Shown here in pieces: positions 1 through 43,949 of a stretch of DNA of 64,000 nt. The first letter of the stretch is position 1, and every line of letters starts with the position of its first letter. Source of the stretch: Isurus oxyrinchus. Its lineage: Eukaryota. A program made the translations under genes and the position numbers. The notes below the pieces were generated by a model. That model had not been told where the DNA came from, did not search any database, and saw nothing but the letters and a program-made list of their open reading frames with translations. The stretch lies in assembly GCA_026770705.1 (NCBI GenBank), contig JANJGN010000035.1, forward strand, positions 6,882,001 through 6,946,000, read 5' to 3'.

Positions 1-1370
1 ACCCATATACACTACCCTAAGTGCACACCGCTCATCAAGATTCTGTTTCAAATGCTCAAAATGTCAACATGTTGGTCGAAAAGATCCTTTCTTCATACGT
101 CCATGCCAATTGTGTTTGATTGTTTATGCCTCGATTGGCCTTGCCTTGAATAATCATACATTGATGGATCTGAATGAAGATAGATCCTGCTGCCCATGTT
201 GTTCCAGTATTGTTTACCACCACAAAGGTTTCCCTGGCTGACATTGACTTGACGCTACTCCCCTTTCATTCGTCTCTTTAAGTGCTGCGACGTTAGCTGA
301 AATCCAGAACGACAGAAACTCAGCTTTGGCTACAGTCCCATAACAGTGGTTAGGACCTCGCTAGTTTAACTCTTCCTTGGCTTCTGTTGCAGTCTGGAAT
401 ATATTTCATCTGGACAGGGAAACTTGTACTTCTTCACAAGCTGATTAAGCACTTAATACTTTCCATCACTCTCGCTATGTGAGTTTAATTTAACATGTCT
501 CGCTTTTCCATTCTAATTGTAAAATTTGTTCTTCCTCTCTCTGCGAAAACTGGTGCCAATATTTCATTAACGACCGCACCGATTTTCTGCACCTCAACAT
601 AACCTTTGAGGTTCTGTATCCCTACTCGGTACTTCTCGTTACTTTACGTTTTCTGATAGATGCATGTACTCCAAGTCAGAAGTCAGTAATGATGAAACGG
701 GGCACAGATCGGAGAATGATATGTAAAACATAATATTATTCTGCATTATAGTGAACATTTAAAGTTAATGTAACAATTTATTATTACCAATAAGAATGCG
801 CATGTAATCGAAGATATTTGTTTGGCGTTGCAGTTCTAATTAGCCAAAATGTATTAGAAGTAATATATTGGAGGCAGATATAGGTGAACCGTTGGAATGC
901 TAATGAAACATTTTTTAATTAGCAAAAATGTTGTGCCAATTGAATAGCGAGTGAATAAAACTACGAGTGATGCTTTTATGATGGACAGAATAATGAACCA
1001 GAGCTGTTTCAAACCATGGCTTCTGTTTCTGATGAGGACAGAAGAATAGCTGACACGAGGTACTAAAGAGCGCTACTTTTAGTCCACGGCACGACAACAG
1101 ATTATGTTTGGGACAAAATAATCGTTTAAAATTAGTGTTTGAGAGGCATAAGAACAGAAAGGGGAAATATAAGAAATTGTTCTATTTCCAGATGCACAAT
1201 ATTACCAGAAGTCCAATGTTGCATATAACAATTTGCAATTTGCAGATCACTTACTTCAGGAAAATATGGTTTGACCCCGTTAAGCAAGATTTTTTTATGT
1301 AAAACAATAAAAGTATGGAGAGTGCTAATGTGGGCAAATGCCCGCTCAGTTCTAACTACGCCAAACATAC

Positions 1371-1540
1371 CTCATTTTCTTTCTGCATTTGCACATTGAT
1401 AGACTTTGGAGTTACACTTCTATCATCCACAGATTCTTCACTTTTTTGAAGATGATTGGAGATTTGTGATCCCGTGAGTTCGAAATGCAGAGTGTCAGCA
1501 ACTTTCTCATCACCTCATGCAAATCCAGTATTGTTATCTC
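1371..1540 (-). pseudogene. Repeat-module exon type A, unit 1 (170 nt, in-frame stop)
   Basis: ttttttcaatagatactttaaAG|...|GTatgt. Reads xDNNTGFA*GDEKVADTLHFELTGSQISNHLQKSEESVDDRSVTPKSINVQMQKENE, with TGA at codon 8. Confidence 0.65.
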
Positions 1541-2139
1541 CTTTAAAGTATCTATTGAAAAAACGCACGGGAGTATTTGAAATCTTCTATGATACTTTTG
1601 CTGATATACTTATAACTCTCAGGCAATTCATTCAAATAATTCATAAATAAAGATCACAAGTCAATTTAATAGCTTTTGGCCAATTCAAATTGTATGCTTC
1701 CGTTTAGATATTTTACCCACAAGTTGATCTGCATATCGACTCTATGTTATTTAGAATAACATAACCATCACTTTAATGACATGGAATGCACAGCATATGC
1801 CCTTATGCAGTCGCTGAATGATCACAAGCAAGCTATTGGATAAATGTTCACATAAGATCCAAATAATTATCAGCAAAGCTGAGAAATTAGTCTGTGCCAG
1901 ATGGAATAAAATGCACTGAGGGAGGAAGTCCACCAGTGACGTTATGATATAATATAGATCGTGTTAAGGAAAATGGTAAAGCTTATTTGCATCACTTTGA
2001 ATGTGCTTCCTGTGGCAATATTCATTAGAAATTTTTCAGTTTGCTAACATCCAATTCAGTAAATCAAACGAAGTCAGAAGAAAAACCATGTAATTGTAGG
2101 CACTGAAACGCTTATGATATTTTAAGCCTGGCTAAGGGC

Positions 2140-2390
2140 TATTTCTTCTCTCAGGGGCTTGATAATCTTTGGAAAGCTTTATCACAGAGGGCTGTAGAGC
2201 CTGGGTGGTTAATTATGTTGAAGGCTGGGATAAACTGATTTTCCATCGGTAAAGGACTCAGGGCTGATGGGGAAATGGCAGCGAAGTGTATTTTAGGATG
2301 AGTAGATCAGCCATGATGTCATTCGATGACGAAATCAGAATCGATCTGTCCAATGACCTGTTTCTGATCCTATGTCCTATGGCCTTATGG
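2140..2390 (+). mobile_element. CR1 LINE 3' end fragment (also present in unit 3 at ~14340-14585)
   Basis: tttcttctctcagggg...gagggctgtagag...gatcagccatgat...ctgatcctatgtcctatgg matches the CR1 3' terminus. The same downstream flank (atgttaatcagc.gag.actgcc.agtt) follows in units 1 and 3. Confidence 0.75.
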
Positions 2391-3082
2391 TTACTCATGT
2401 TAATCAGCCGAGCACTGCCTAGTTCTCATAAGTTATGCTTCGATAATTTAGGCACATCATCAACATACTGCACCTTATGAAGGCAGCACGTCAAATGATC
2501 ACTTTTTTTTTTGTTGAGACTATGTCTGCATGCGTGATGGTGGCCTGTATCGCTTTCTGCAGATCTCTGTAAATTCATTCTGTCGATGTATATATTATGC
2601 ATATATACATCTGTCCACCTGCTTATCATATCCCTTGAAGGATTTGCACATTAGTGCTGTGGAAGAAATATGTCTGTTATTAATGCATACCTTCCACCAA
2701 TCATCTTCGCACTCTGGTGGAATGGCCAAGAAAAAGTTTGCGAATTTAAGGAAAATTGGCATTAAACTTGTTTCTGCCCGCTGTTGGTAACGGGAGACAT
2801 GCGAGTGAGTCTAAACATAAGTATGTGATACATCGAAAATCGCACTAACAAGAACGAGCAGTGCGGTATCGTGGTGCAGATGGAGAACTGAGGGCTTTTG
2901 TTTAAGACTCATAGTGGAGAAATAAACATTCTCAGTGAAAGCGAGCGTATCTCTTTACATTCCATAGTGCACATTGCTTGCACAAGGATAACAATGGCCA
3001 TAATTTCGAAGAAGAGTTTATAATTAAGCAATGAGGCTGGATAATTCTTCTGCAGTGTACGATTAAATTTTGTTAAACATGC

Positions 3083-3249
3083 CTCGTTGTTTTTCTGAGC
3101 GAACGCATTCGCATGAAGTAGATTTGCCTTCTGTCATCCAGAGATTCTGTAACATCTGCACGTGAGCCAGGAGAGAGGGACTCTGCATTTAGCATTGATG
3201 ATGCCAGTGACATTCGATACAGTTGTTTCCATTGTAACATTATCATCCT
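3083..3249 (-). pseudogene. Repeat-module exon type B, unit 1 (167 nt, compensating frameshifts and stop)
   Basis: tcttccactgtaatttatAG|AG GAT GAT AAT...CAG AAA AAC AAC GAG|GCatgt. Starts EDDNVTMETTV and ends HANAFAQKNNE; the middle is out of frame with a TGA. Confidence 0.6.
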
Positions 3250-5849
3250 CTATAAATTACAGTGGAAGAAATGAACTTTGCATAGTTGCAGCATAAAATT
3301 GTAGATTCAAAGATATACTTAGCGACGAGTTCTACTGAATGATAATTACGTAATTGTGGAACGTGTACGTTAAATAAAATTCAGTCATTAGGCACATAGG
3401 AAATATTGTCTTTCTGCTTGCTGCCTTTCCCCCGGACTGACTTTCTTTTTGTAGAGTACTCCCTTTAATTCCATTATCTATGCTTTGATCTGTCATATTA
3501 AAATTGCAATACCCTTTAAAAAGTATAAGTTCGTGCCAACCTCTGGTTTCCGTTTTCATCTCATAAAGTGCGAAAAGGTACTGCAGACTGAAAGTTTGCA
3601 GCACAACGTGATATTGTAACTCAATAGTTTAAATATTGTTTTTGGGTATCTGGCATCATCTAGGAACTTGAAAGCGGTTTTAACTGTTCATTTGGGAGCT
3701 AATTAAAATGTATCGACGGCATGCAAAATTTGCATGGCGTCACAGAGCAGTTATTTTCTTTTCCTGCCGCTAGGAAATTGGTTTCGATATCGTCCATTTG
3801 TGGAACTCCGAAAAGCCAAAAAACAGAGGGACATTTGATGTACCATTAATGTCAATCATGTTAGCGACCTGCTACTAATGTTGACTCTCATTTACATCAG
3901 ACGGTCAACGTGAATCCGCCCACAATGCCTTCCTCGGCAAGTGGTTGATGTGATACATTAGGATGTTGTCAAGTTCAGAAGTGATGACAAGATAACTACA
4001 GGCAATCTGCAAAAAAGGCGCTCCTGAGAAATGGAGGGAGTCGTTGAGTTTTGTGCGGAGAGACATTGGCAAATTAGAGCTAGAGATGTTGACAAACGAT
4101 TGGTCAACCATGGGTGCTAAATTTGAAGTTGTTTCACAAGTTTTAAGTCTGAATGCATTTTCTCCCCTTTTAATTTATCACTGAAAATAGCTGAATTATT
4201 TAATGACCATCTGCAAGGTATTTTCTCTGCAGCATTCTGAATTTCATCTATCTGTGCGGCACATATCTGTGATAACAATCTCACCTGAGTCAGTGTTACA
4301 AACATAATAGGAAGAAAATCTAACCACTGGTGCAAATCGTGCACATGACGATTGGTACTGGAGAATATCACATAAGAGTAATCTCACCACATGTTTGTGT
4401 GCTTATGTAAGATATGCTCGCTCCATGTCGTTGCACCAATGGAAGTAGGTTTTCATCTAACATGTGCATGACGGTGGGGTCCCTTAAATTATCGGTGTTG
4501 AACGGACTTTCTGATATTTTTTTTTTATACCTCTCGATCCTGAAATTAGTAACAATATCATTAATCTGAAATGGCGTTAATTTTCATTCCTAGCACGGTT
4601 GAACCACTGAGTTCACAAGTCTAAGTAACATACCTTATTATTTCTGTTGGCCTGTGATTTATAATTACCATGGTTGCATTTTGAAGGGCATGTCCACTGG
4701 AAAAGTATGAGGACTATATACAATGTTGCTTTCCAAGAACAGATTGTAGCATGAGACATAGGATAGTGCTGAGGAAGAATTAAGTGTACCGGGGAACTAC
4801 CGGGCCACAACCTCTTAATTGGCTCCTGGATCGTGTGAGATCAGAGCAGCTGAAGAGCATGTCACTTGAACCGAAAAATCTCAAAAACATCTTGCGCCTG
4901 TGTTCATCAGCTGCCAATAATTCAACACTAATACCTAGCTGGCTTGGCCTGCACTCATATATCTATAACCTGCTCTCCCTCTGGACGTCCATGCAGAGAG
5001 ACAGAGGGGGAAATCACCGTCGGAAACATTGAAAGGCAAGTGCTCATCAAGTGAATTAACGATTACAAGTTCTCGAATATCATCCCGTGTCATCAACAAT
5101 GAACTGAAAATAATTTGGAGAATATCAATCAAAACGAACCCATCAAATTCCTTGCTTTAGATTTGTTGCTATTGTACTCTTTTGCGACATCGTTAATGTA
5201 AATGGTGTTGCTTGTCTCATGTGTCTTGTATGTGTGGATATAGGGATTTCAGAAAGGATTTATTTATAGGTGATAGAATTAAAATTTAGAAGTTTATATT
5301 CGTTTAATTGGCGCTCGTTAAAGGCAGTTTGTTCAATAAACAGTTATTTACTTTTTAACTGCACAAACCTTTTATATCGTGCCAACCAAGATTAAACAAA
5401 TAGTAACAATTAGTTGGTGTGATCAAACTTTTGCAAAATTGTCTTGGCACACGCAGCAGTGAGGCTAGATATTGCAGCTCACTATCCCCAGTGCGTCGTG
5501 ACATAAGCTAATACAACAATGTGCGATGTTATTTTTAAAAGTCCCAAAGAATGTACAAGGCACAAAATAGAAATAACACTTCTTCACCTTCCTAATCACG
5601 AAATAACCATCAACAATTTTAAGACAAGAACTAGTGAGGTCGCTTAACAAAAAATAGATCTCGCACATCCAAATCAATACTCTTTTCATGCAAAATGTGT
5701 AGGCGTATATTGAAGGAATGAAAGGGTATTAAAGTAAAATTCAAACAAATCTGATGAAATATCCCTGAGCAGAGGGGGCCAGAAAACATTTTATGAACTG
5801 GAATAGTACAGCCAAAGTAGAATTTAAAGAATTATAAAATGTTCAATCA

Positions 5850-6900
5850 CTGGTTGTGCACAGCGACCATCCATTTCAATCTCCTTTTCAGGTCATATTC
5901 AGTAGCCTTGCAGGTTAATGCATTACATGCGCATTTACAACTAACATTATCAAAAGTTATTAGGGTGTCTGTCTATTATCCTTTCAGACTCTGATATGCA
6001 GATCTCCAACATCCTCTGGCAATTTACTCTTCATAACCCACACATTCAAGTTCAAAATCGTACAACATAAAATTTATGCAGCAAATATCCTGACGAAAAC
6101 TCACAAAATAGACAGGATCAGTCCTAAAACAACAAAACCAATTGTCAGCAATTTTACTTCTTCTGATCCAATTTTATTCCAACCTACGACTTTGTATTAA
6201 ATTAAATGGGCTTTTAGTTTCGTTGAGATTTGCCTTGTGTGTGTTTATTAGCAACAGAATGAATACGCTATTTGCTCACCGCTAAGGAAAATTCTGATTC
6301 AACGTTTGGAAATTTTAACATGTTAGCCTTTTACGATCTTCATTTAATACTTTCATTCCAATTGCCTTAAATTAATCCTTGTCTCGCTCGGCCGTGCCTT
6401 GAATAATCATACATTGATTGAATTGTATGAAGATCGATCCTGTTGCTCATGTTTTTTTTTCCAGTATTTTTTGCACCACCAAATTTAGCCTGGCTGACAA
6501 CTTATCTATACATCTTTCACCCAGTTTGTGAAGTGGTGCGACGTTAGTTGAGATGCAGAAAACTGGCACCTCAACTTCCGCTTGGGAGTCACACAATAAT
6601 GGTCACAACATCTCTAGCGTATCTCTTGACTCTCTTCTCTTGCAGCCTGGGATATATTTCACCAGAGCCTGGAAAGTTGTGCACTTTCAAAAGATGATAA
6701 AACTTTCATTGTTTTCCCTCTTTCTCACTATGTGAATTTAATTTAATATTTCATGCGTTTCCAGTCTTATTGAAAAGAAATCGCACACCCTCTCGCCTTT
6801 GCGAAAACTGGTGCCACGTTTTCAGTAGCCAAGATACCGACACCCTGCAACTCAAGACGCTCGTTAACCAGCTGCTCCGTTAAAGCACATGTTCTTCCTT
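5850..6900 (-). mobile_element. Old CR1 LINE remnant carried in each tandem unit (copies at 1-~660 and ~11830-12830)
   Basis: Minus-strand CR1 3' end and RT-like stretches (ttagcctggctgac...acgttag...ctggcacc...cagcctggg) repeated at unit periodicity. Confidence 0.55.
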
Positions 6901-7617
6901 TTGTGACAGAGGGATGAACTCCAACACTGATGTCAAAAAGTATGAATCAAGGGACTAGGCGCTGAATGATGTACGGAGCAAAGCGCATTTCCATAGTGTA
7001 TGCAGGATTCAACTCCAACGTAGCAATTGTTATTACCAGTAAGCTGTCATGTTAGAGAATTTTTTGGCTTCGAAAGTATGCACCCAAAAAGCTTCAGTTT
7101 GGTGAGATATGCTGCTAAATGGTTGGATTTGTAATTTAGGGACAAGGCTTTATAAACATTTATTTAATGAGCAAAAAGGAGGTAGTAATTGCGGAGCGTG
7201 TGGTTAACATTATGATTGAAGGTAAATACATGAGAGAATACTGCACCTAGAATCTTTCACTCTATGGTGCTTGTTTGTTACAAATACAGACGAATAGCAG
7301 TCACAAAGTTCTGATGAGCGTTACTTTTAGTTCAACGCGCGATGACTCATTATGGTCTGGGCAACATCATCAACAAAACTTAGTATCGGAGAGGCATAAA
7401 AACAGAAAGAAGAAATATCAGAAATCGTTCCATTCCATCATGAACAATAGTACAAGGAATCGAGTGCTCCGTATAACAATTGCAATTTGTTAATATTTAA
7501 TTTTACCAAAGAAAGGCTTTGACAGCGCTAAGCTAGTTGATTATGTAAAGCAATGAAAACATGTTCATTGCTAATGTAAGAAAATGTCTGTGCAGTTCTA
7601 ACTACGTCAAAAAATAC

Positions 7618-7786
7618 GTCATTCTCATTCTGCATCTGCATATTGATAGATCTTTGATTTGCACAATATCATCCACAGATTCTTCACTTTTTTGAAGAGG
7701 ACTGGAGATATGCAATCGCATGTCTTTGAATCGCCGAGTGTCAGGAAATTTCTCATCACCTCCTGTAAATTCAATATTGTTATCAC
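7618..7786 (-). pseudogene. Repeat-module exon type A, unit 2 (169 nt, 1-nt deletion)
   Basis: cttataatttatAG|GT GAT AAC AAT...|GTattt. Reads GDNNIEFTGGDEKFPDTRRFKDMRLHISSPLQKSEESVDD, then a 1-nt deletion before SINMQMQNEND. Confidence 0.65.
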
Positions 7787-9498
7787 CTATAAATTATAAG
7801 TTGACAAAAAGTATGGGAGTATTTGAAATCATCTATGCTACTTTAGTTGACATACTTATAACTCTCAGGCAATTCATCGAAATAATTCACAAATTTAGTT
7901 CACTAGTCCATTTATTCGCTTTTGGCTAATTTAAAGTTTTATGCATCCATTTAGACATTTTATCCATATGTTTAAATGTATTTCGGCTTATGTTATTTAG
8001 CATATTTTGAACTTCACTTTAATGTAATGGAATGCACATCATGCAACTCAATGCCGTAGATCAATTATAATAAGCATATTACTAGCTCAAGTTTCGTAAC
8101 ACAACCAGACACTTATTAGCAAAGGCAATAAATTTGCCTTTGCCTGATGGAATAAAATGGGCACAGGAAGGGAGTGTAATAGTGAGTCTGGGACATAATT
8201 TAAAACGTGTTAAGGAAAATGATAAACGTACTTTCCATCACTTTGAATGTTTTTCCTGTGACTTACCTTAGTAATGTATATATATATATGCGACATTCTG
8301 ATCATCACCTTAGCTAATTGCGTCTTTTTGTGCCGGTCTTTGACATATGGATCACATCATGCAGAACTACAGGTTTTCATTGACCACGAGGTATCAAACA
8401 AGCATCCATTGATAAAGGAGCCTTGATTGTTAAATTTGTCCGAAAGACAAATTATTTCAGAAAGGTAACCTACAGAGATCCATTTACCTTTCTCAGCAGT
8501 TCATAGTTGAAGGAATCAGAGTAGTTAGAATGCAGGGACAAGCATGAAAAGGCTGAAGTTAAATGTTAACAGAATTCAGGAGAGCACGGACTGACTAACC
8601 TGCGATCACACAGTCAATGCATTTAACTACGTTATTCATGCAAAATGCTGTAAAGCCTTGACGGGTAAATTTACATGTTCGATGCAAAATGAGGAAAATA
8701 TGGTCATTATTATTAATACAAATGTCATAAGTCCAAGCTCGTGTTTCTGTACAATGCAGTGCCCAATAATTGCGAAGGAGTTCAACCTTATGGTTACTAT
8801 ATCTGTAAGTGCCATTGACTGCAGAATTTAATTCTACTTCATCAGTCATGAATTACTTTGCTTCTGACTATCCTTAAACAACTTTGTGGGAGAGGGTGTA
8901 ACATTCTCCCGCTCTAGTCCTCTTGAATACGTCTCAGGTGAAAAGCGAGTTGCAGGAATGTACACAGTACCTCCGCAACTGCCATGGTTTAAAATAAAAA
9001 AGCTGATTGAAATTTGAGTTATTTTTAAAAAGATAATCTCACCGGAAATGTGATCTGCTCCGTCCTTTCGGACATCTCGATTTTCGTGATGGCATAGATT
9101 TACGACAGGATTTACTTTTGGTGTGATCTTGATGTCACTGCAAATATCTGTGCTGAACCGAGTTCCTAGAATATTGTTTTGTACTTTGTGCTAAACAAAG
9201 CTTAACACTGATTATATGTAACTTGCCAAAGTTTTCAGTTGTTGAAGTGATTAACTTGCACACATCCCCAGCTATTGCAAGGACACCTAATGCAAACCCG
9301 GCGTGCAGTGATTTTAATAGAGGAGAAAAAAAAACTGTTTTGTCACAGGAAAAGCGTCCGGCAATTTTAAAATTCCATGCAGCAAATTGCTTGCACCAGG
9401 CCGGCAAGGGCCATAATTTCGAAGAACAATTTATAATTAACCAATAAGTATGGATAATTCTCCTGCAGTTTGAGATTCAATTTTTTAAAAAAACTTGC

Positions 9499-9668
9499 CT
9501 CGTTGATTTTCTGAGCGAAAGCATTGGGATGAAGCTGATTTGTGGTTCTACCAGCCAGATATTCTGCAACATCTTCAACTGAGCCTCTATTGTTAAACTC
9601 TCCATCTTTGTGTTGATAATTGCCAGCGACTGCCGGTACAGTTGTTTCCATTCCAATATTATCATCCT
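9499..9668 (-). CDS. Repeat-module exon type B, unit 2 (170 nt, open frame, GC donor)
   Basis: tttttccactgttattttAG|...|GCaagt. Reads EDDNIGMETTVPAVAGNYQHKDGEFNNRGSVEDVAEYLAGRTTNQLHPNAFAQKINE (inside ORF 9367..9747). Expression is unknown. Confidence 0.5.
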
Positions 9669-12600
9669 CTAAAAATAACAGTGGAAAAAATGAAATTTGC
9701 ACATTTGCAGGATGACAGTATATACAGCAAGATATACTTAGTGACACGTTCTACTGATTGAACATTATGTAAAAACGAAAAGATTAAATTAAACTTAGTC
9801 ACTCTGCACACATGTATAACTGCCTTTCTGCATTCTGTGTTCCTGACTGGCGTTCTCCTTGACAAGTAGTGACAAGTAGTAATTACCTATGCTTTAATCT
9901 AACAATCTCGTTATTACAATTGCAGTTCCATGAAAAGAAATACACGTTATTGCCAAGAAAAGTACTTTGGGTTGCTGCTTACAATTTATCAATTTTCTAA
10001 AGTTTCTGAAGACTCGAAGTTTGCAGCAGAACAAGTTAATGAAAATCATTTGTCGAAATACTAGTTTTGGGCAACTGCCATCGCATGGGAACTTGAACTT
10101 AGCTGTTCAGTTGGAAGGAAATTTCAATATTTTAATTGGACAGAAAATTTACATGACCTCTAAATGCATTTAATTTATTTTGCTGTCGCTGCGAATTTGA
10201 TTTTGACATCGTCCATTTGAGACACTCACAAGAAGCAAAAATCAGTGGGACAATCGATGCACCGTTAATTACAATCATGCTTCCAACTGATGCTAATGCC
10301 GGTTCTCATTTACATTAGACTGGGAAGGTGAATATGCCTGAAATGCCTTCCTTGGCATTAGGTTGATGAGAATTTTGCGGATGTTGTGAATATCAGAAAG
10401 GATGTCAAAAGAACTACATATGATCTGGAAGAAAGCGCTACAGAGAAATGGAGGGAGTCCATGAGTTGCAAATGAGGTTTGATCCGAGAGACATGGGTCG
10501 TTAGAGTGAGAGAAATTGACGAACTATTGGATTGAACGCGGTTTTGTAGGGTTTAAATATGACTGCATTATCTTCCCTTTAATTTAATCACTTAAGATAG
10601 TCCAATTATTTGATGACCATCTGCCATGCAATTTCCTCTGCAACATTCTGAACATCAATTTTCACAGTTGCAAATATCAGTCTTAACAGTATCAGGTAAG
10701 TCAGAATTCGCAAGACAATGGGAAGATAATGAAACCACTTGTGGAGATTTTACGGATGAAGATTGATAATGCAGACTATCACATGTCAACATGAGTATTC
10801 TTGCCATTTGTTAGTGTGCTTCTGCCAAATCCGTTTGCTTCCAATTGTTGCACCAATGGATTTGAGATTTCATATAACAAGTGCATGGCCTTGTCTTCAG
10901 CGTCACTATCGGTGTTAAACGGATTTTCTCATGATTTTTTAACCTCTCGCTCCTGAACCACCAATAGCGTCATTAAGGTTAAGTGCTTTTATTTTACATT
11001 TCTGACATATTTGAACCACAGAGGTCACAAGTGTAAATAAGATGTATTTTTGATTCAGTTGGTGTGTGCATAAAAATTGCAACGGTACCATTTTGAAGGA
11101 GATGTCTACTGTAACAGCCTGAGGTCTATATACAATGTTGATGGTACCATAGAGCAGAGTGTACTATGAAAACCATGGCAGTGCTGAGAAAGAGGTTAGT
11201 ATAAAAGCGAAATACCTGGCAAAAGATATATTTTTTAATTTGCTTCTGACCACATGGACAGAGTTCTTTGAGATTAGTGCAGCTAATGAGCTCGTCGCCT
11301 GAATGATAAATAAAAGTCTACAACAGCTTGCACCTGTCTGTGTCAGGTCAATACAAAAATCATCTGCTGGCTTTCCTAGGCAGCTTATGTTTGGAACATG
11401 CTCTTTCTGCAAGTTACTGGCTCAGGCAGCAATGAGGCTTGAGTTTTCAGTTCATGGTCCCAAGTGGGCCTTGACACAAGCTGGTATAATACATTTCAAT
11501 CATAGTTTAAGGAGCCCAAAGGAATTTACACGTCACGACGTAGAAAAAACACTTCCTCCCTGTCATAATTACTAAATCAACAGCAATTTTAAGATAACAA
11601 ATAGGGAGATCGTTTAACTAAAAATAGACTTCGCAGATCCAAAACAATACTGTTTTCACGTGAAAAGTGTAGACATGTATGGAAGAAATGAAGGAGTATT
11701 AAAGAAAAAAACACACAAATCTGATGAAATATCCCAGAGCTTGGGTGGCCGGGAAACATTTTATGATTTGTAGTAATGCAGCCAAAGCAGAATAATAATC
11801 ATATAATCACAGAATTTATATCCCCGGTACTGCACAGCGACCATCCATTCCAACCATTCCTTGTTGGGTAATGCATTACACGTACATATCCAACGAAGTT
11901 TATCATAAGTTATTTGGGCTTCTGTCTATAATCCTTCCAGGCTCTGGCATGCAGATCTCCAACTGCTTCTGGGAATTTATTGTTCATAACCCATATATCC
12001 AATTCTAAAATCATATAACACAACATTCATATTGCACTGATCCAGCCAAAAAACTCACAATAAAGAGACGATCATGCACAAAACCAAAAACCAATTGTTC
12101 ACACTGATACCGCTTCTGATTGAATTGTGTATGAACGTACCACATCGGAACGAATTAGATGGGCTTTTAGTTTTGTTGTCTTTTGCCTGGTGGATGTTTA
12201 TCAACACAAGTATGCACTACGTTAAATGTTCACTGCTAAGCATGATTCTGATTTAATGGCTCAAAATTTCAACATGTCATTCCAATACGACCTTCTCTTT
12301 ATACTATATTTCCAACTGGCTTAAATTAATCATTGCCTCGCGTGGCCTTGCCTTGCATAATCATACATTGATTGAATTGAATGAAGGATGCTGCTCATGT
12401 TTTTTTCCACCACCGAAGTTAGCCTGACTGACACTGATTTATATGGCATACCTCTTTCACGCAGTTCTTGATGTGGTGTAACGTTAGCCGAGATCTATAA
12501 TTCTGGCACCTCAGCTTCCGCTGGGGAGTCGCACAAATATGGCCACAATTTGGCTAGTGTATCCCTTGCCTCCGTTAATTGACAGCTGGGATATATTTTA

Positions 12601-13546
12601 CCTTGGCCTGGGAAATTGTGCACTTTAAAAAGATTAAAGGTTTTAAATGCATTCCCTCCCTCACGCAGTTTGAACTTAATTTAAAATTTCACGCGTTTCA
12701 AGTCGTATTCAAAACACAGCACAAACCCTCTCTCTTTTGGAAAAGCTGGTGCTAAGTTTTCATTGGCCAAGATACGTACTTCCTGCAAGTCAATACGCTC
12801 GTTGACCGTCTACTCCCTTAAACCCTTATTCTTCCTTTATGGACAGAGGGATGATTTTCAAGACCAATGTTAGGAAGTGTGAAATGAGGACTCATTAAAT
12901 GATGTATGAAAGAGAGTACGTTTCTGCATTGATTTGAGGATTCAAATCCAATGTGAAAATTGTTATCACCATTAAGAATGCAGCTGTCATGGAAGGGATT
13001 CTTTTGGCGTCGAAGATATGCACTCAAAAAACTCCAGTTTGGAGGCAGATGGAGCTGAAGCATAAGGGTTCTAATTTAGAGACATAGCTAATGAAGTCTT
13101 TATTTAATAAGGAAAAATGAGGTATCAATTTTGGAGCAGCTGAACAATACTACGATTGAATATTGGAGAAGATAATGCACATAAAATCATTCAAACTATG
13201 CTGCTTTTTGCTGATGAAGATGGTAGAACAGAAGACACGATGTACTGAAGAAGGATACTTTGAGTTCACGGAGTGACAACGCATTATGTTCGTGGCAAAA
13301 TCGTCAGTTAAAATTATTATCGGAGAGGCATAAGAAAAGATGGAGGAAATATCTGAAATCATTCTATTCCTGATGAAGAATATAGCAAGCAATCCAGTCT
13401 TCGGCACAATAATTGTAATTTGCTTACTTCAAGATAGAAAGGCGTTGACCGTGTTAAGCTAGTTTATTTTTAATGTAAAACAATAAATGCATGGAGAGTG
13501 CTAATGTCAAGAAACGTCTGTCCAATTCTAACTCCGTCAACCATAC

Positions 13547-13713
13547 CTCCTTCTCCGCCTGCATTTGGACACTGATATTTAGATTTGCGGCACTATCATC
13601 CACCAATTCTTCACTTTTTTGAAGAGAGCTGGAGACATCCGATCCAATGTCTTTGAATGGTGGAGTGTCAGCAACTTTCTCATTCTCTTCTCCAAATCCG
13701 GCAGTACTATTTA
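13547..13713 (-). CDS. Repeat-module exon type A, unit 3 (167 nt, open frame, canonical AG/GT)
   Basis: tgttttttgtccaacctgtacttatAG|...|GTatgg. Reads xNSTAGFGEENEKVADTPPFKDIGSDVSSSLQKSEELVDDSAANLNISVQMQAEKE (inside ORF 13454..13741). Expression is unknown. Confidence 0.55.
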
Positions 13714-16619
13714 CTATAAGTACAGGTTGGACAAAAAACATTGCAGTAATTGACTTGATCTACGATACGTGAGTTAACATACTTACAAATTCAGACAATA
13801 TACCCACATAATTCATAAATAAATTTCACAAGTCCATACATTGGCTTTTAGCCAATTCGAAGTTTCGTGCATCCATTTAGCTCTTTTATCCATATTTCTA
13901 TCTGCTTATCCACTTATGCTATTTTGAATAGCTTTAACATCAATTTTATGACATGGAATGCCCGGCCTGTGACTCTACAAATTCGATCAATTATCGCTAT
14001 CGTACTAGTGGCCAAATGTTCGTACCACAACCAGCTAATTACCAACAAATCAGAAGAAATAATCTGTGCCACCTGGAGGGAAATGATCAGAGGGAGGCAG
14101 TGTAACAGTAACATTGTGAATTAATAGAGAACGTCTTAAGAAGAACGGTACACTTGCTTTACATCATTTTGAATTTGTTTCCACTGACTATATTTAGTAA
14201 TATAGTTAGTAATTTTAGTTAGTAATTATTTCGATTTTGTATTTTCCATTTGTACAAATCATACAAAGTCAGAATAAGAGCAATGGGATTGCACCACTGC
14301 AAATTTTTAGACAGGTTGAACCAGGCTACGGGCAAATTTAAACTCTCAGGGTTTTGTTTATCTGTGGATTTCTTTTCCATAGAAGTCTGTAGAGGCTGGG
14401 ACGTTAAGCATATTGAAGGCTGAGATATATAGATTTTCAATCAGAATAGGATCGAAAAGTGATGCAGAAAAGGAAGGGAAGTGAGTTTCAGGATTAGTAG
14501 ATGTGCCATGATGTCATTGAGTGGCAAAAGATTTTCGATGGGCTTAATGGCCTACTTCTGCTTTGACGCTTTCTGCTCTTATGATTAGACATGTTAATCA
14601 GCTGAGAACTGCCCAGTTTGCATAAGATATACTTCGAATATTTATTGCACCTCATCAGCTAAGTGCACCTCATGACAACAGCACGTCAAATGATCAAGCT
14701 TTATTGTAAATATGTCTGCATGCCTGATGTTGCCCTGTATCACTTTCAACTTATCTCTGTCTCTTTATTCTATTGACGTGTTTTTTTATCTATATACACG
14801 TCTGTCTGCCAGCTAATCGCATTCAAATAATGGTCACTATGGTGTAAAAAATATTTATCTGTCTACTCATAACGACGACAAATAATCTTCGAACTCTCGT
14901 GAAATGATCAGGCCAGAGTTTGTGAATTTAAGAAAAAAAATCACATGACAATATTTCCTGCCCACTGTGGGAATCGTGGGACGTGCGCGAGAGTATGAGT
15001 GAAAGCATGTGATAGATCGTAAGAAGTGCTAACAAGAATGAACATTGTTTCTTACATTGCATCCAAACTTATTTCCAACAATTTCATTTTCCAAATGTTT
15101 AGATTCGATCCCACCCTTTTAAATACATCGTACAATGTCAGAATTCCATGAGGAAGCAGGTCCAATGGGCAAATTTCAACCACGATCCCGGGCCTTTTAT
15201 CTCTTATGTGGAAGACCAGTGAGCTGCAGAAAACTGAATAGAATTCCATGCAGTGGCGATGCTTGAATACTTGCTGCCATAAACAGTGCTTCGGGCAGAG
15301 GGGAAGGCAATCATGGATGGCAGTCCACCAAAAGAGGAAAGGTAGGAATGAACCAAGGGAAAAAGACACCTGTGTATGATGGACAGATGGAAGAATGAGG
15401 ACAATGATGAAGACATTCCGGAATTCTGTTCCCCAATGGTAATAGTATTGATGATAGGCAGGAGGAGTATTTCTAAATTTATAAAAGAAAGTCCTCATTC
15501 CGGTCAGCATTTGAGCCCACTGCCTCGTTTCATGCTGGTCTTTGTCAAAAGGATTGAATCACCCAGGATTATTGACTTCGGTTTACCATAAGATAACAGA
15601 AAGGCACCCATTGCTAATGAAACCTTAAGTGTTATATGTGTTCATCTAATAAGTTCAGAAGTTTCAATTAGCAGGACAAAAATTTAATATTAGTTGGAAT
15701 CCAGAAACGAGTCAGTGAATACGAAAGCACAATGTTGGCAGACTTAAGGAGGACACAGAGTGATTCACGTGCCATCACATAGCTAATGCAATTTAATTCC
15801 TTGAATGACACAAAAAGGTTGGAATGCTGGGCTTTGCAAAGGGACTTTTTCAATTCAAAATAACCACATTATGTTCCATACTATTAGTACAAAAGTTATT
15901 AGGCGAAATCTCATTTTTGTGGGTGCCAATTATTGGGAATGATGACAATACTTTTTTTTTTTAAATGTATGTATTAGTGCCATTGACAGTAGAATATAAT
16001 TCTAATTCATCAGTCGTGAACGACTTTCTTTTGGATTGTCATTGCACAGTTTTGCGGGAAATGGTGTCATATTTTCCCACGCCAGTCATCTGCATATCTC
16101 TCAGATCAAAGGAAAGTTGCAGGAATGTGCCTACACAACTGGCGCTGTTTAAGTTAAAAGCGGACTGAGTTTCATTAGTTTGAATATTTTGACGGTGGGA
16201 AATATCAGTTCAATTGGAAAACATAATCTCACGAGAAGTGTATAGTTTTCCGTCCTTTCGGCCATCTCTATATTCTTGCAGACATGGATGTGCATCGGCA
16301 TTCAAATCTAGTGGGGTCCTGATGTCACTGCAAACATCTTTGCCGAGCGGAGCTCCTGCAATTGCATTTTCCATTTTGTGCTAAACAAAGCAAAGTATTG
16401 ATTAGATGTAACGTGGCCAAGTGTTCTTTTGCTGAAGTTGTTAAGTTTGACACACACACAGCTTGTGCACGCATAAATATAGCGAACCCGGCGAACAGTG
16501 CGGAGTCGGGAATTAGCGATGAGAAATGACTAATGCTCATATAGACTCAATTTTACCTGCACAAAATTTTAAGCACGTTAAGCGATGTGAACTTCCTGAC
16601 GTCCATGCAGATTGTCTTT

Positions 16620-18060
16620 GAGTAATCCTTGCCTTTCTAATTTAGATTTGATACTGTTCGTATTTTTTTTCCACGTATTGTTTTCGTCCACCGAGGTAAA
16701 CCTGACTGACAATTCCCTGTATGCCAATCAATCTCTATCATGTTAAAAATGTTGCGACCTTAGATGAGCTCCACAACTCTGGCAGGACACCTTCCGTGAG
16801 AGAATTGGATAATGATGGTCAGAGCATTGCTAGTGCATTGCTTGCTTCCGTCCCCTTGCAGCTTTGGGAAAATATCGTCTGGGCATTGGAAATTAGCATA
16901 ATTCAGAAGGTGTCAGAGCCCTTGATTCATCCTCTCTTTACATGGTATGTCAAGTCCATTGAAACTTTCATGTTTCTTCTGACTGATTGCAGAAACCTTA
17001 TTTGCACTTTAAGCAATGCGTCTGCTAAGTACACATTAAACAACAATTCGACTTTTGGCAACAGAACACACAGTTTAAACTTGTATTCCCATACAGGCCA
17101 TATTTTTCTTTTGTGATTAATTTGTTCTTAGTGAATTGATAAGCAACTGCTAGAATTCGCTTGATTTTAGTTATCAATATTCTCTTATACGTTGTCTATC
17201 ACAATGTCCGTTCTAATTGCATTCCCATATTTTTGAACTCCTCAGGCATTACCCATTATTGAGCCATAATTAACTGAAGTAAGGTTTCCCTTTCATCTTT
17301 GTCCGCTCCTCCAAACGCCTTGAAGACCAGGACGTTCCTGAATTGTTGGTCAGAACCCTACACCATTAACGGAAACAGATGTTCTGGAAACCTTCTTATC
17401 AGTTACTTGAAATTCACTCTTTTACCTACCAGTGGCTATTTCCGGTCGACTTTCATCAAGTTACATTTCGGCTGAATGAAATTGGATGTTCCTGATGGAG
17501 AAAGCTATTCATGGTCGAAAGTTAACCCTATCCATAATTACCCTGAGACGACTTAAAATCGAATTTATATATCCATGGCCATCCTGCGTGAAATCGTTCC
17601 AATCAGATATTCCTGCCTTCCCTTCAGCCATATTCCTCTAATAGCTATAAAATGAAGCATAAATTTTCAAACTGCACATAGAGATCATATGACTTAATGT
17701 TCGACGTCATAAACAAGTGTTTATAGCGTTTAGCACTCCCATAATCCCTGGTAGTTGGTGTCCTAGTTTTGTTTCTTTTGCCTTCTAAACCCGTTGATTG
17801 ATTTGATGCCTATCATTTCCAAACCGTGTTGTCCAATTTTCGAAACTTCTCCCAAGTTTTCAGACTGCAATACACTTTGACTAAGCCTGTCAGCAAGAGC
17901 AAATTTCCATTTAAATCTACGGGCCCTCGCTTGTTGAAGCCCACTTCGTCCAGCCTGACAAATCTCTACTCGCTCAGTAACTGTGCAATGTATCGGAATT
18001 CACTCGGCACAATCTCTCCGGCTGAAGATTAATATGCTGTATCTTCCCATTTCCGAACTT
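16620..18060 (-). mobile_element. Highly decayed CR1 LINE (RT and upstream regions)
   Basis: ccaccgaggtaaacctgactgacaattcc... resembles minus-strand CR1 RT and the remnant in the tandem units. Further CR1-like stretches continue to ~18050. Confidence 0.5.
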
Positions 18061-18339
18061 GCCTCACAGGTGGTAACAGGTAAAATACATTTGTGCTGTT
18101 AAATCTCTCTCGAAGCCACATTTATTTCAAAGCCAGGACTTATTCCCTTTTTCAGAAGAAATTTCAGAGGAATTGCACAACTATCATTCTTCTGTTCACC
18201 CAGAAGAAGCTATAGCTTGCATACTTTAAATAGGTTAACACCCAGGCTAAGAGATTCAATACACCGTGGTAATTAATATCAGTAGTAGAAAAAAGTGCAG
18301 AAGCTTATAGGGTCAACTATTAATTGCTCACAAACTCAC

Positions 18340-19230
18340 ACAATCGAGTTCGAAAAGAGATAGCTGCAGAAATAGCGGACGTGCTGGCTACAATTTTCCA
18401 CAATTCGTCAGATTCGGGAATGACACTCACCGATTGCAAGTTGCCAAGTTTACCAACACTGCTCATACATGGGAAGAGAGAAAGAGCAGCAGAACGCAGC
18501 CCAATTAACCTAACATCAGACTTTGGGAGAATACTAGATGACATTGCTGAGAATATCACAAAATCCAGATGTATTTGTGTAGCATATTTAGAAAATGTCA
18601 CTTTTTATCAAAAGGGAAATTATCGTCGTTTTCTTTTGTGAATATGCCTGGTAAGGCAGATAATGGCGAACTGGGAGTCCCATTATACGTAGATTGCAAA
18701 ACGACATCCGATAATATGCCACAGAAAATTTCAACAGGATGAGTATGGCTTATAGAGTTGGGAGGCAATATACTAGAATAATTCTAGGATTTCTTGACGA
18801 AAAGCAGGTAAACTCTGGGCACGAAATTTCATTAAGCAGTTGCCGAATACAGGAATGCTGAAAAGGTCTGTGCTAGATCCCCTGATGCTTAAAATGTGAA
18901 TTGCGTCTTTGAGAAGGGAATCATATACGAACGTGGACACTGGAAGGCTTTATGGGAATTCATGCAGGAAAGACGTGCAACATGTTGGAAGGAGATATAC
19001 GTAGCTTAAGCGAGTATGAAGAAAATGTAGATGCAGTGTATTGAGCAGAAGTGTGTAATAATGGCTTTGCTCATTACTATAGAAAAGCTCATTTTTTTAA
19101 CGTGAGAACATTGTACATGTTCATGCTTAGATTATATTGGGTGTGCTCGTACAGTGAAAGTGGGACGTTTGCCAAGCTAAATCAAGCAGAACAACTGCAA
19201 ATGGCAAATTGGATTTTTTGTATGCTAACT
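18340..19230 (+). mobile_element. CR1 LINE ORF2 (RT) fragment, decayed
   Basis: ORF 18324..18641 gives KEIAAEIADVLATIFHNSSDSG...PINLTS, matching the CR1 RT N-terminus. Confidence 0.8.
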
Positions 19231-19309
19231 GGCGAAAATGAATGAATAATTATTGACATAAATATACAGGAATTTCACTAATGCAAATACTGAATAATCT
19301 GGAAAAGAC

Positions 19310-20840: not shown

Positions 20841-22169
20841 ATGTGTTCAGTTTTGACCTGCAAATTTAAGTGAGCACTAGACGTGGTGCAACATAGGTAC
20901 CCCAATTTGATCTCCACAAATAGAGGAATGCCTTAAGATGAGAAGCTGTCTGAATTTAGCCTATATTTTTGACGTTTAAATGATTGATATAATTGATGCA
21001 AAGCATGGTTATGACGGAGCTGCATACAATGGGCTCTGAGACGTTATTTTTCGCTTGTTGACAGACTAAAGCATCGGAGAAAAGTCTCAGGATTGCGAGC
21101 CTATTTTTGGTGGTAAAATGAGCAGACATTATGTCATTAAAAAATGTGATTATTTTGAAACCTGCACCGCACAGGATTGTGAAAGTCCCAATTTTGAATG
21201 CATTTAAGGCTAGGGTACAAATACTCCCAGATGTGGGAAATGGGGGAGCATACAAAATTCGGCTTCCAATGATTGAGACTAAACAACTTCATATAAATGC
21301 ATGGACTCCAAGTCCGAAGTCAATAAGTGGGTTAACATGGAACAAGTCGGAGAGTTATGAATGAAGAAGTCCACCAATTAGGATTGGAGGGATGATATAT
21401 ATTCAATCTAATATCTTGTCATTGCCAGAGCGGCTGCAGTTGGAATTAGAGATTAAATGGGTATTGGGGTTATAAATTCAACAAAATCATTGGGATTCAT
21501 GGTATGATTGCGCATGTGTATTCATTGTTGGAATTCTAACTTAGTGACGTAAATAACAGAATCTTCTCTAACACCTTCAATGATAGAGTCACATATTCCC
21601 TAGATTTCTCTTCCAGCTTACACACCATATTGTAACATTTAATTCATGTAACCCTATTTCCTCCAAACAATGTCAAACAATATTTCAATGCTTTGAATTG
21701 CACCTTACAAAGGCCCATTTCACCCGTCTGGCAAATTCTCTTTAAATATATAAGTATCGTGCGCACAACTCTTTGGATGTTGTTCGTACACATACATCTA
21801 AATCAGGAATATTTATTAAGACAATGATATGGTCCTATTGCTGACAGTTGCAAAATAAAGGTATCGCCATTCAAAAACTAATTTGCACCACGGCTACGCT
21901 TTTTCTCTCAGTCCAACAAAATCGTAGCAATAGTGTCACTGCTTTTTTTCACTATTCCACTGACTTCAAATTTTATAGCAAAAGTATGAATTGGCATTTT
22001 CTCATTGGCTACTGCATTGGCAACAAACCAACAGTTTTGCATTCATATATGCACTCCGTTACCTCTTTAACTAATAAGCTTTATCAAAATAATCAAACAC
22101 GACTGTGCACTATTTAACCCTGCGAAATGCATATATTTTCTTGCATGAAACAATGCAATGACAATTGAT

Positions 22170-22259: not shown

Positions 22260-22498
22260 CTGAAACATATTTTTTTTAAGAGTAATCAGCAAGTGAATTA
22301 CATACTTGAATATGATTAGAAATATTGTCAATGCCTTTCAGAACAATTGTGTTTCCTCATGTAGAGGAAGGTAACACTACAAAAAATAGTGAGCTTCTTT
22401 ATGTTTCATGATAACTGTAATCCTTAAGGCAAGAAGCCGAAAGCACAATTGAATTTTGAAATGTCATTTCATTAAGGAGTAAGTATAATCGACATGAT

Positions 22499-22693
22499 GT
22501 TATTTCCTTGAGATTGGTGTTACGCACAAATAGGCGGCACAATGCAGGACCACATTTGTCAGTTAGTTTGTTGGCCAATTTGCCTTCCTGATTGACGTTA
22601 CTCAAGTCCAGCTACATTAGGGAACCATTTACACTGAGCGTGGAGAACAGAGTTCCCAAACAATCACTTGCGAGGCCGTTATTTGTTTTAGTC
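22499..22693 (-). pseudogene. NLR LRR exon (two RI-type repeats)
   Basis: NNGLASDCLGTLFSTLSVNGSLM*LDLSNVNQEGKLANKLTDKCGPALCRLFVRNTNLKEI. In-frame TAG; acceptor and donor both degenerate. Confidence 0.8.
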
Positions 22694-25900: not shown

Positions 25901-26449
25901 ATGTTGTAATATCAGAGGGAATTTGTTGCATCATGGAGCGTAGCTGAATACTTGAAGGGTATACCTGCAGTCAGAGGAGTAGTCTTTGTCTCAACAGTTG
26001 TCGTATCGCGTGGGTTGGGAGAGGGCAGTGGTGATGGTGTGCTCAGCAGTTCGGAAGGATATTCAGAGAATTAGTCATGGTATTCCAGGTCCGGCTCATT
26101 CTTTGAGATCAGCATAGATATGTTTTTAAGCGTAAATCAGTCCTGGTTTTATACAATAGTTGCACCAGTTTGTCATTCGTATGTTTAACATTTCCTTCAT
26201 AACTATTCGGTTAAGTGTGCCTGAATTGCACAAACCTATGGCGCAGAATGTTCGAGCTCCAGGGCAAAATATCCGAGGTGTACTCCAATGCTGAAAGTAT
26301 AGCACACGCCACATTTCTCCCTGTATTTCCCAGTTTAGTGCTGCACAGCAATTGCCTAGGCAGTTCAAGACTCTGCTAAGCAATTGCCTTGCACTGGGCA
26401 GCTTTCAAATGTACAGGTTAGGACCAAAAATTCAGATGGTTCCAACCTT

Positions 26450-41471: not shown

Positions 41472-43193
41472 CTGGGTACTTTGGATTTGTCCAGAATGGG
41501 GCCAACCTGATGAATGTCTTTATCCTGCAGACCAAAATCAATGATATTCAGCTCTTCTATCTTCTGAATGGCCATTAATGCCGCCGATAGTGCGGAGCAT
41601 TCCAAAGCTCTCGATGGAATCGTGTGCATTTTTTTACCTTTACCGGTACAAAAGCGTCTTTCATCAGTTTTATGTCTTCATATTCAACTAAGCTATGCGA
41701 TAGTTGTAAGAATGCCCTTTAGCTTCACAACTCTCTCATGTCATGAACGAGTCTTTTGAGATTATCTACGAGCCATCAGAGAGATGCTGTGTTGCTACAC
41801 CATGAAATGTTCCCAATATCTACTCAAGATAATTGTTTGAATTCTGAGAGGAAAGACCAATTAAAAAACGAGAAAATATTTCGAATCTGCTTTCAATACG
41901 CACGTATCCTTCATTCAGCAATTGTCCCAAAGCTCCTCGGAGCGTAGTGATTAGGCAATCCGTGAGCACAACAACAAAGTTTTGCAGATCATACTGAAAA
42001 AAGCTAGATACAACACCATGCTGAACTTTGTCTTGAATCTCCATCAAAAACAAAGAGAAAAATATCGAGTTACCGAATTCGTGACAACTGAAGCGTTCTG
42101 CTGGAAATAATACGCTTTCATTACAAAGTCCGTTGTAGGCCACAACAGCCGAATGCAGCAGTTTATTGGTAGAATATTCGGAATCATAGCAACATCTCTG
42201 CAAAACGTGCCCAAGGTAAGTGGAGAACACACGAGTGCTCGTTGTGATCATCATTGGTACTTCTTCAACTCTTTATGTTAAGTGAGACTCTAATAGGGAG
42301 GAGAGAATCAAGCAATACGTGGGGTTACAGCACATCAGGTACAATACGTCACTCTGCTCAATATGTTTGAGTGCATATGTAGCAGACCGCTCAATTCAAA
42401 AATAATGACCAAAGTATTGTTCTATCTTTTCAGGGATGAAGCTCAAGATTTCGCATGTTAGATTTATTTTTGGCTCGGCTAGTTTATCCATTTTCTAAGG
42501 CCGGCTTGTTATCAATATTTAACAACCTTTCAGCCACTCCCCATCAATGAGACAATGCAGGATGCCTGGCACTGAAGAGCAACAATCTGGATCCAAAGCT
42601 TGGCTTTGTGGGTCCTCTAATTTCTCAAAATCGGTAATATTCACGGTTTTCTCAAATAGGTTTAAATCATCGAATATAAACAGTATAATTCCATGATCTT
42701 TCCACATATACCACAACACATTTTCGAAGTGAGGGTAATGATCCAGAATCAAGGAAGCTAGGTTCGTTCTGCCATGTATTAAGTTGAATTGAGAAAGCTT
42801 GAAATGAAAGACAAATTTAATTTCTTGGTATATACTCCCTTTGGCCCAATCGTGCATTATCTTCTGAATCATTGTGTGTTTACCGTATCCTGGCGCACCA
42901 AACACCACAGTTGTTCCAGATATGTCGGTACAGGAGCATCTGCTTCTCAATAATTGATCGAGTTGTGTTTTATGTTCATTCTCGATACTTCCCTGTATCT
43001 TTAAAAGATCTTTGCCTCTGGAACTCAGTACTAGTTGGAGAAATGTATTTCTCACGTAGGGAAGCTGCGATGGATACCTCAGTGTAAATATCATCAAGGA
43101 GAGATATCCTGGGAATTTGCTTCCCTGCAGTGGCTGCGATGCGTATCTTCCTAGTTCGTTTTCGCTGATTGTCTTTATGGTGAAGCTCTGTCT
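41472..43193 (-). pseudogene. NLR NACHT exon (pre-NACHT helix, NACHT, HD1, WHD, HD2, first LRR)
   Basis: ttgttgttaccaattaaAG|..ETELHHKD...LLDDIYTEVSI, frameshift, then TTVVFGAPGYGKHTMIQKIMHDWAKG (Walker A), FVFHFK, ILFIFDDL (Walker B), *ILITSRP*, EILSF, LYLMCCNPTYC, FEIFSRFLIGLSS, ECSALS...IEELNI...LDKSKVPR|GTaatt. Confidence 0.95.
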
Positions 43194-43949
43194 CTTTAAT
43201 TGGTAACAACAATTTTATTTTCCAACCGGTCATAATTCGGGAGCAAAACATTTAATTAAACAATGCATCGAGAGGCAGCAAATATTCAAGAAAATGACAT
43301 CATTATTAAAAACTTGCAACAAACATACAAACATGCGAAAATACATTTTGCACTTAATTAAGTGGACACTATAAAACTACAATTAAAATGGATAATATAT
43401 TTGTAAATATGCGTCGATCTGCGGATGGACTATGAAGGTTACTATAAGATTTCTGTTATAATCATGAACTTGAAATGGACAAAAGCACACCAAAGAATTC
43501 TTAACGCAAAATTTCCCAAGTTAATATAGTGATAATGATCTTATTTATAATACATTATTAAATACCTAAAACTTCAAATCCGGAAGTGCATGAGGTGTAC
43601 CAGGATATCAGCATCAGCAGGCCACCTCAATCGCGCAGCATTTCCCTTACCAAATCATTTTTATGAAGCAAGCGGATCAATCTTGTTTCATTGAGCAATG
43701 TACGAGATGGACAAGAGGTGAAGCAACGATCAATCTTAAAAATGAAGTCCAAAAGTTTATAAAACAAAAATTCAGGATGACTTGCAAGCTAGACAGCGGA
43801 AAGAGAAAGTCCTTGACATAGCAAAGTGATCCTAAAAGCAATAGATCATTGAAAGCTCTGCACCCAACCATTTCTAGCACTGAATATTGCTGGACAACTC
43901 TGCAACTAATGGGAGGAGGAAACTCCAGATACATTGTAATATTCACTGA

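Follow-up and report, generated by a model that had tools for sequence, protein, structure and literature searches.

A broken array of duplicated two-exon modules beside an NLR pseudogene in Isurus oxyrinchus

Results

Exons of the array

A 64,000-nucleotide stretch of the genome of Isurus oxyrinchus (GenBank assembly GCA_026770705.1, contig JANJGN010000035.1, positions 6,882,001 to 6,946,000 of the forward strand; hereafter the window, in which all positions are counted from its first letter) carries at its left end a tandem array of nine short minus-strand segments that are or were exons. Five of these, the A and B exons, had been singled out in a first-pass annotation; the other four, the C exons (148 or 152 nt), were overlooked by it. 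Farther right on the same strand, upstream of the array in the sense of transcription, lies a pseudogene of the nucleotide-binding leucine-rich repeat receptor (NLR) family that bears a NACHT exon and that had been left unlinked to the array.

In transcript order, which runs leftward, the A and B exons are A3 (13547..13713), which is 167 nt long, open, and marked by an in-frame 3-nt deletion; B2 (9499..9668), 170 nt and open; A2 (7618..7786), 169 nt and frameshifted by a 1-nt deletion; B1 (3083..3249), 167 nt, with three 1-nt deletions and one stop; and A1 (1371..1540), 170 nt, with a stop at codon 8. A3 and B2 run from phase 1 to phase 0. Each of the five is preceded by AG and followed by GT (A1, A2, and A3) or GC (B1 and B2), exactly as annotated, and the count of two open and three disrupted copies likewise holds. 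A1 and B2 are equal in length, align without gaps at 82 of 170 identical nucleotides, and share precisely the 12 amino acid residues previously claimed for them, and K20-D21 is common to A2, A3, and B2. When B2 was slid along both strands of the window (~128,000 positions; mean 43.8, standard deviation 5.8), A1 was the top non-self position, and DNA alignments of A with B lay above codon shuffles in all six comparisons (z 3.5-6.6). The protein similarity of A to B is not significant, its score being reached by 641 and 1946 of 2000 shuffles. Judged by these DNA alignments, the A and B exons are paralogues. On a textbook-style matrix the acceptors score modestly, at the 49th-93rd percentile of the minus-strand AG dinucleotides in the window, and the donors fall at the 58th-99th percentile. 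GC takes the place of GT at three of the nine donors in the array (3083, 9499, and 10805), namely those of both B exons and of the C exon CB2, while the C exon CB1 has GT.

An exon that runs from phase 1 to phase 0 cannot splice in frame to its own copy, and a partner exon is therefore required; for this reason the single 56-amino acid exon originally proposed as the module had to be abandoned. A sensitive diagonal scan detected faint homology of DNA preceding the A exons to DNA ~1.2-1.4 kb upstream of the B exons, and alignment of these upstream regions exposed the four C exons, with AG and GT or GC at identical columns. All four are on the minus strand and run from phase 0 to phase 1. CA3 (16233..16380), which comes first in transcript order, is 148 nt long, open over 49 codons plus 1 nt, and bounded by AG and GT; CB2 (10805..10952), also 148 nt, has a GC donor and a stop at codon 8; CA2 (9043..9190) is 148 nt and open; and CB1 (4388..4539), with a GT donor, is frameshifted by a 4-nt insertion in a run of A that brings it to 152 nt. 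CA3 and CA2 are open in this frame only, with stops in the other two. A length of exactly 148 nt is kept in three of the four, and the splice dinucleotides are aligned in all of them, though CA and CB are identical at just 65-66 of 148 positions. With these exons the array reaches position 16,380.

Together, a C exon and an A or B exon amount to 148 + 170 = 318 nt, or 106 codons. The six exons CA3-A3-CB2-B2-CA2-A2 splice in one frame, with cumulative phases of 1, 0, 1, 0, and 1 and one stop in all, as far as the frameshift that interrupts A2. The true repeat is a frame-preserving two-exon module of 106 codons that is able to change in copy number by unequal crossing-over. A profile search of the window returned just the four C copies, and the C partner of A1 has therefore been lost along with ~1.4 kb of DNA that is absent near position 2,900. 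The A/B and C profiles, compared with each other, are unrelated (match probability 0.4%).

Architecture and duplication history

Self-alignment of the window reveals cassettes that are 66-74% identical. The higher-order unit, CA-A-CB-B, is present in at least 2.5 copies of ~70% identity, and the two-exon module in at least five. Unit 3 (CA3-A3-CB2-B2; approximately 9311..16500) measures ~7.2 kb and unit 2 (CA2-A2-CB1-B1; approximately 2900..9310) ~6.4 kb, whereas the partial unit 1 (1..2899) leaves the window at its left end, with 6-2863 aligning to 12211-15047; all lie on the minus strand. Copies of one exon type are 69-81% identical, which exceeds the identity of A to B and of CA to CB and indicates that a C-A module was duplicated first and the pair CA-A-CB-B amplified later. 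The two rounds of duplication envisaged in the first-pass annotation are thus upheld, but the amplified unit is not the B-A cassette it described; the breakpoints of CA-A-CB-B lie near 16,500, 9,310, and 2,900.

The nearest relative of a unit switches along its length. In an intronic block designated D the closest pair is units 2 and 3 (93 vs 49 and 30 sites), and around exon A it is units 1 and 2 (26 vs 15 and 13 sites). Switching is seen across 6-2027 as compared with 6256-8275 and 12211-14200. Such changes of nearest neighbor point to later exchange of segments between units, by gene conversion or unequal crossing-over, and suggest that the units are mosaics.

Two intronic blocks serve as landmarks. 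Block D is a fossil of a long interspersed nuclear element (LINE), with copies at 173-625, 6453-6906, and 12400-12841 and a fourth, D4, at 16639..17116 on the minus strand that is 57-60% identical to the other three. On an initial look it was taken for a coding exon, a candidate that was dropped when the copies at 6462-6697 and 12404-12679 proved to match a LINE remnant at 35,986-36,268 (E 3e-5 and 1.5e-5), the continuation of which has a weak RVT_1 match (E 0.037). Block P (21274..21539, minus strand) is homologous to the intron following the A exons (637-903; E 2e-7, 6e-7, and 9e-8), and by this homology it marks the original intron leading into the first C exon. A dispersed repeat fragment occurs at 2119-2393, 14317-14592, and 48846-49119, and hence in units 1 and 3 and not in unit 2; it was inserted before the cassettes were amplified.

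Coding history and decay

All 18 splice dinucleotides of the nine exons are retained, compared with 12.8-14.5 in neutral simulation (P 0.003-0.018), and in-frame stops number three where 5.9-8.8 are expected (P 0.02-0.15). In the predicted frame the substitutions vary with codon position (recent pairs, p 0.013; old pairs, p 0.01), and exon identity is slightly higher than intron identity (74.3% vs 70.5%; p 0.014, the pairs being non-independent). None of the nine exons overlaps the repeats common to the rest of the window (matches from 17.3-64 kb). On neither of these last two counts are the grounds that the first-pass annotation named for its own refutation borne out. The retained dinucleotides, the complementary phases, and the codon-position periodicity bear out the proposal that these segments are or were exons.

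Three stops and five frameshifts disrupt five of the nine exons, and one C exon has been deleted; the array is therefore most likely a pseudogene. The protein region that the first-pass annotation read from it is probably no longer coding, the stop in CB2 following the first module. Lesions are about as dense in the array (8 in 1.44 kb) as in the neighboring NACHT exon (~9 in 1.65 kb). On these sequence features, the array most likely once coded for protein and later lost its function.

As a check on transcription, four of five read runs (contigs; their kind guessed, and one probably DNA) were compared with positions 1-20000 at 80% likeness. No joint falls at any exon boundary. The bins containing A1, B1, A2, CA2, and A3 are uncovered in these runs, those of B2 and CA3 are covered at a depth of ~0.4 in one of the four, and that of CB2 at 0.3-0.5 in three; the CB1 bin is covered in all four but also contains a heavily covered repeat piece. 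The read pieces among those listed fall outside the exons, and the coverage is no evidence either way on expression.

Selection signal

Across the copies, variation is greatest at the second codon position and smallest at the third. In a one-ratio codon model made for this analysis (~200 codons), the ratio of amino-acid to silent change (omega) is 1.89 for all nine exons (likelihood ratio test, p 0.0013) and 1.74 for the recent branches only (p 0.016). Four independent pairs (203 codons) give an omega of 2.07, a value that one of 150 intron controls attains (median 1.01); once the A3/A1 pair is swapped in, omega is 1.61, attained by 4 of 150. Pairwise counts on the C exons range from 1.26 to 3.82. 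The alternative frames were rejected: a shift of +1 (omega 1.15) is not open across copies, and a shift of +2 (omega 0.65) is full of stops. The old A/B and CA/CB splits repeat the pattern, with 48, 39, and 61 of 106 identical at the three codon positions (p 0.01). Thus, amino-acid change appears to exceed silent change (omega 1.6-2.1), and the copies are likely to have diversified under selection. Relative to introns, the first and third positions are more conserved (z 2.4 and 3.2) and the second stands at the intron level (182 observed vs 188 expected), so that silent-site constraint offers another way to read the signal.

Predicted product and homology searches

The modules CA3-A3 and CB2-B2 carry net charges of -9 and -10, in agreement with the acidic, polar product anticipated earlier, and have FoldIndex values of -0.06 and -0.14; hydrophobic residues make up 22-31% of the open exons. 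AlphaFold models of single exons, built on shallow alignments (4-8 rows), show no confident fold (pLDDT 52-53, pTM 0.11-0.19) and contain either one helix, at residues 30-40 of B2, or none. From these indices the module is predicted to be intrinsically disordered.

Pfam, queried with single exons, returned nothing for three translations including B2 and A3 (E ≤ 1) or for any of the four C exons (E ≤ 10), and the remark that no known domain could be recognized in the A and B exons still applies. For a CARD or other death fold there is no match in Pfam or among PDB sequences and no six-helix fold in the models, the halves of the module having been examined separately. The repeated exons have no Pfam leucine-rich repeat (LRR) match, and their reading frame is polar and acidic; an off-frame stretch beginning in the intron before A1 scores 23 on an ad hoc LRR pattern, which is within background. 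No PDB sequence matched below E 0.28. The two large protein libraries were queried with the A and B exons rather than the C exons: 0 of 4071 candidates reached E ≤ 1 with the A/B profile, and two matches among 1.84 billion representatives, a ciliate multi-RRM protein and an Ig-like (Big_3_5) repeat protein, were set aside as repeat artefacts. The NACHT open reading frame (ORF), used as a positive control, also came back blank, twice, and the blanks from the protein libraries are therefore uninformative about shark homologues. The best ESM Atlas scores (0.88 and 0.84) belong to unnamed or weak entries and point to no family, none of 358 stretches was confirmed in a metagenome scan with A3, and Rfam has no match in the window. 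Literature searches turned up no published description of the module. The two-exon module is previously unrecognized.

The NLR neighborhood and other elements

The NACHT exon (41472..43214, minus strand) has ~7 stops and two frameshifts by reading of the frames, and Pfam identifies in it NACHT (PF05729; E 7e-16), NLRC4_HD2 (E 0.0035), and NOD2_WH (E 0.005). By resemblance, it may belong to the NLRP-related family of cartilaginous fishes. Between it and the array lies a tentative, likely decayed LRR exon (approximately 22490..22692, minus strand), which contains one stop and lacks a canonical AG or GT at its expected ends; this stretch has the best minus-strand score on the ad hoc pattern, 27 as against 24 for the runner-up. 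When 150 minus-strand ORFs were scanned with Pfam (18 from 17.5-41 kb and, for 43.2-64 kb, 132 out of 150 listed), no death fold and no LRR was found, the seven weak matches (E 0.01-0.045) all being to unrelated families. Upstream of the NACHT exon, that scan thus contains no N-terminal CARD or death-fold exon among the 132 ORFs of 43.2-64 kb, and there are no C- or A/B-like exons there. Blocks P and D recur before CA3 in the same order as within the repeat, which implies that the original intron into the first C exon reaches to ~0.9 kb from the LRR exon. Taken together, these positions suggest that the array probably continued the neighboring NACHT/LRR gene and decayed with it.

The remainder of the window contains several other elements. 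Strand composition is strongly skewed at ~26000-34500 and 39200-40300 (GC skew to -0.5, the plus strand being rich in C and A), and positions 33541-33720 have an inverted 180-nt match at 34249-34427 (82%); the skewed stretches probably represent old mobile elements that entered the introns of the NLR. LINE remnants that resemble one another and bear reverse-transcriptase-like motifs lie at 35000-36500 (minus), 19300-20800 (plus), and 61800-63300 (plus), and are putatively of the CR1 type. A 188-amino acid ORF at 56506-57072 (plus) has no Pfam match but resembles the endonuclease end of a Penelope-like element.

Discussion

The explanation that we prefer, and to which we give slightly better than even chances, is that the broken array of at least five two-exon modules arose in two rounds of tandem duplication and was most likely once a fast-evolving extension, predicted to be disordered, of a now probably dead NLR gene. 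One C-A module, together with its upstream intron containing blocks P and D, would have been duplicated and would have diverged into CA-A and CB-B, and this pair would then have been amplified through unequal crossing-over, an event that the reading frame survives because each module is 318 nt long. The copies would afterwards have swapped segments. Joined by splicing to the neighboring NACHT gene beyond its LRR region, they would have formed a long flexible region on the NLR, diverged under selection, and died with that gene.

Several observations weigh against this account. The retention of splice dinucleotides is partly ascertained, in that 10 of the 18 (those of the A and B exons) were picked by the first-pass annotation for their splice sites and 8 were not, and indels are not significantly rarer in exons (8.3 per kb) than in introns (11.3 per kb; p 0.25). 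When the A and B exons are simply counted pair by pair on their own, the ratios come to 0.72-1.48; one pairing is borderline (likelihood ratio statistic 3.7), exchange of segments between units violates the tree assumption of the codon model, and there is overlap among the intron controls. With alignments of 4-8 rows, any orphan sequence would be expected to give low AlphaFold confidence. Behind the LRR call stands an ad hoc pattern without a Pfam LRR match. No splice link can be drawn from that exon to CA3 (its expected donor is non-canonical, and a phase-0 donor exon did not emerge), and the window shows neither a FIIND nor an effector domain.

The rival explanations bear on different parts of this account. 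That the segments were never exons, and are non-coding or transposon-derived DNA within an old segmental duplication, would fit an exon identity merely 4 points above that of introns, the continuation of A/B homology into the upstream flank (42/100), and the precedent of block D, another coding-looking shared block that proved to be a LINE fossil. This reading is already largely refuted, and we regard it as very improbable: against it stand complementary phases totaling 106 codons, lengths kept across paralogues only 44-48% identical, the intact splice dinucleotides and codon-position periodicity, and the lack of overlap between exons and repeats. Only a slim chance attaches to the opposite view, in which the gene is alive and splices its open exons alone (CA3-A3, or skipping onward to B2-CA2), the broken exons being discarded alternatives. 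CA3-A3, B2, and CA2 are indeed intact throughout, and every splice dinucleotide survives; yet both the NACHT exon and the LRR exon upstream are broken, A3 can be joined to B2 only through a 0-to-1 exon, where CB2 carries a stop, and CA2 must be followed by a 1-to-0 exon, of which A2, B1, and A1 are all broken.

Two other rivals accept a coding history and deserve more weight. The array might encode the N-terminus of an adjoining gene on the left, such as a further NLR in a cluster, and be possibly CARD-descended in the register A/B then C. Its departure from the window toward unseen exons on the left, the alternating 1-to-0 and 0-to-1 phases, which suit either register, and the predicted helix in B2 would all be compatible with this arrangement. 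We nonetheless judge it rather unlikely, since no exon matches a CARD or death fold in Pfam or among PDB sequences and hydrophobic content is low, the traceable extent of the CA3 intron leaves little room for a gene end, promoter, and first exon, and no C- or A/B-like exon precedes the NACHT exon in the window. Somewhat more plausible, though still well short of even, is that the modules served as a spacer under low constraint, which recombination amplified in the absence of any selection for diversity; omega would then be high through noise or through splice-enhancer constraint on third positions. Second positions that match the intron expectation, first and third positions more conserved than in introns, and exons that are 56-60% purine speak for such a spacer, whereas the likelihood tests reject an omega of 1, the old A/B and CA/CB splits repeat the pattern, and misalignment probably underestimates intron identity, such that its correction would raise the neutral baseline.

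Returning to the array as an NLR extension, its architecture recalls that of Olduvai (DUF1220/NBPF). Olduvai is an intrinsically disordered domain encoded by a doublet of a small and a large exon, with subtypes that were subsequently amplified as a higher-order tandem block of triplets (PMC9313022; 10.1101/2021.07.06.450945). Here, too, an exon doublet diverged into subtypes and was amplified as a higher-order block, with a disorder that is predicted only. The doublets themselves differ: 148 + 170 nt and 106 amino acids in the array, as opposed to a first exon of 52 or 109 nt and ~65 amino acids in Olduvai; two subtypes rather than three; and copies that are ~70% identical, broken, and situated beside an NLR. 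As B2, A3, and the four C exons have no Pfam match when queried singly, the resemblance is that of an architectural analogue and not of a relative.

A second comparison is with the tripwires of CARD8 and NLRP1, which are described as disordered, positively selected stretches of inflammasome-type sensors (PMC10249858). The module is predicted to be disordered and may have been positively selected, the omega of 1.6-2.1 coming from few paralogue codons. The CARD8 and NLRP1 stretch, however, is a single N-terminal region coupled to FIIND-CARD, whereas the present array is tandem, probably downstream of the LRRs, and without a FIIND in the window. With respect to the NLR context, an expanded NLRP-related NLR family, with a NACHT-bearing NLRP orthologue absent, is reported for the whale shark, and clear NLRP orthologues are reported to be missing from cartilaginous fishes (PMC8455134); the array, too, has an NLR context. 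A further comparison is with the double-LRR exons of NLRP genes, which are ~171 nt long, symmetric, and carry LRR motifs. The exons of the array approach them in size and lie on the same strand downstream of a NACHT exon, but they form asymmetric pairs without a Pfam LRR match.

By analogy with the tripwires, the extension may tentatively be pictured as a flexible bait, its diversified copies offering many sites to the proteases or effectors of pathogens; of the possible roles we hold this one to be the most likely, though well short of even, and a plain spacer is its main rival. A broader proposal, and a doubtful one, is that a lineage of shark or ray NLRs carries, after the LRRs, a recombination-expandable concatemer of disordered 106-amino acid baits, each copy diversified by positive selection so as to offer a different target to pathogen proteases or effectors; the present array would be its fossil, and the concatemer would be intact in relatives. 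If true, this would amount to the CARD8/NLRP1 tripwire in a vertebrate form assembled from exon cassettes.

Duplication of exons in tandem is ordinary, as is the presence of dead NLRs within clusters. What is distinctive at this locus is an unrecognized two-exon module with an Olduvai-like higher-order amplification and an excess of amino-acid over silent change, located beside an immune receptor. Without an intact orthologue, the array would be a well-resolved pseudogene fossil of modest interest. If, instead, intact orthologues place the module between the LRRs and an effector domain, they would provide a testable model in which cartilaginous fishes widen pathogen sensing by the copying of bait.

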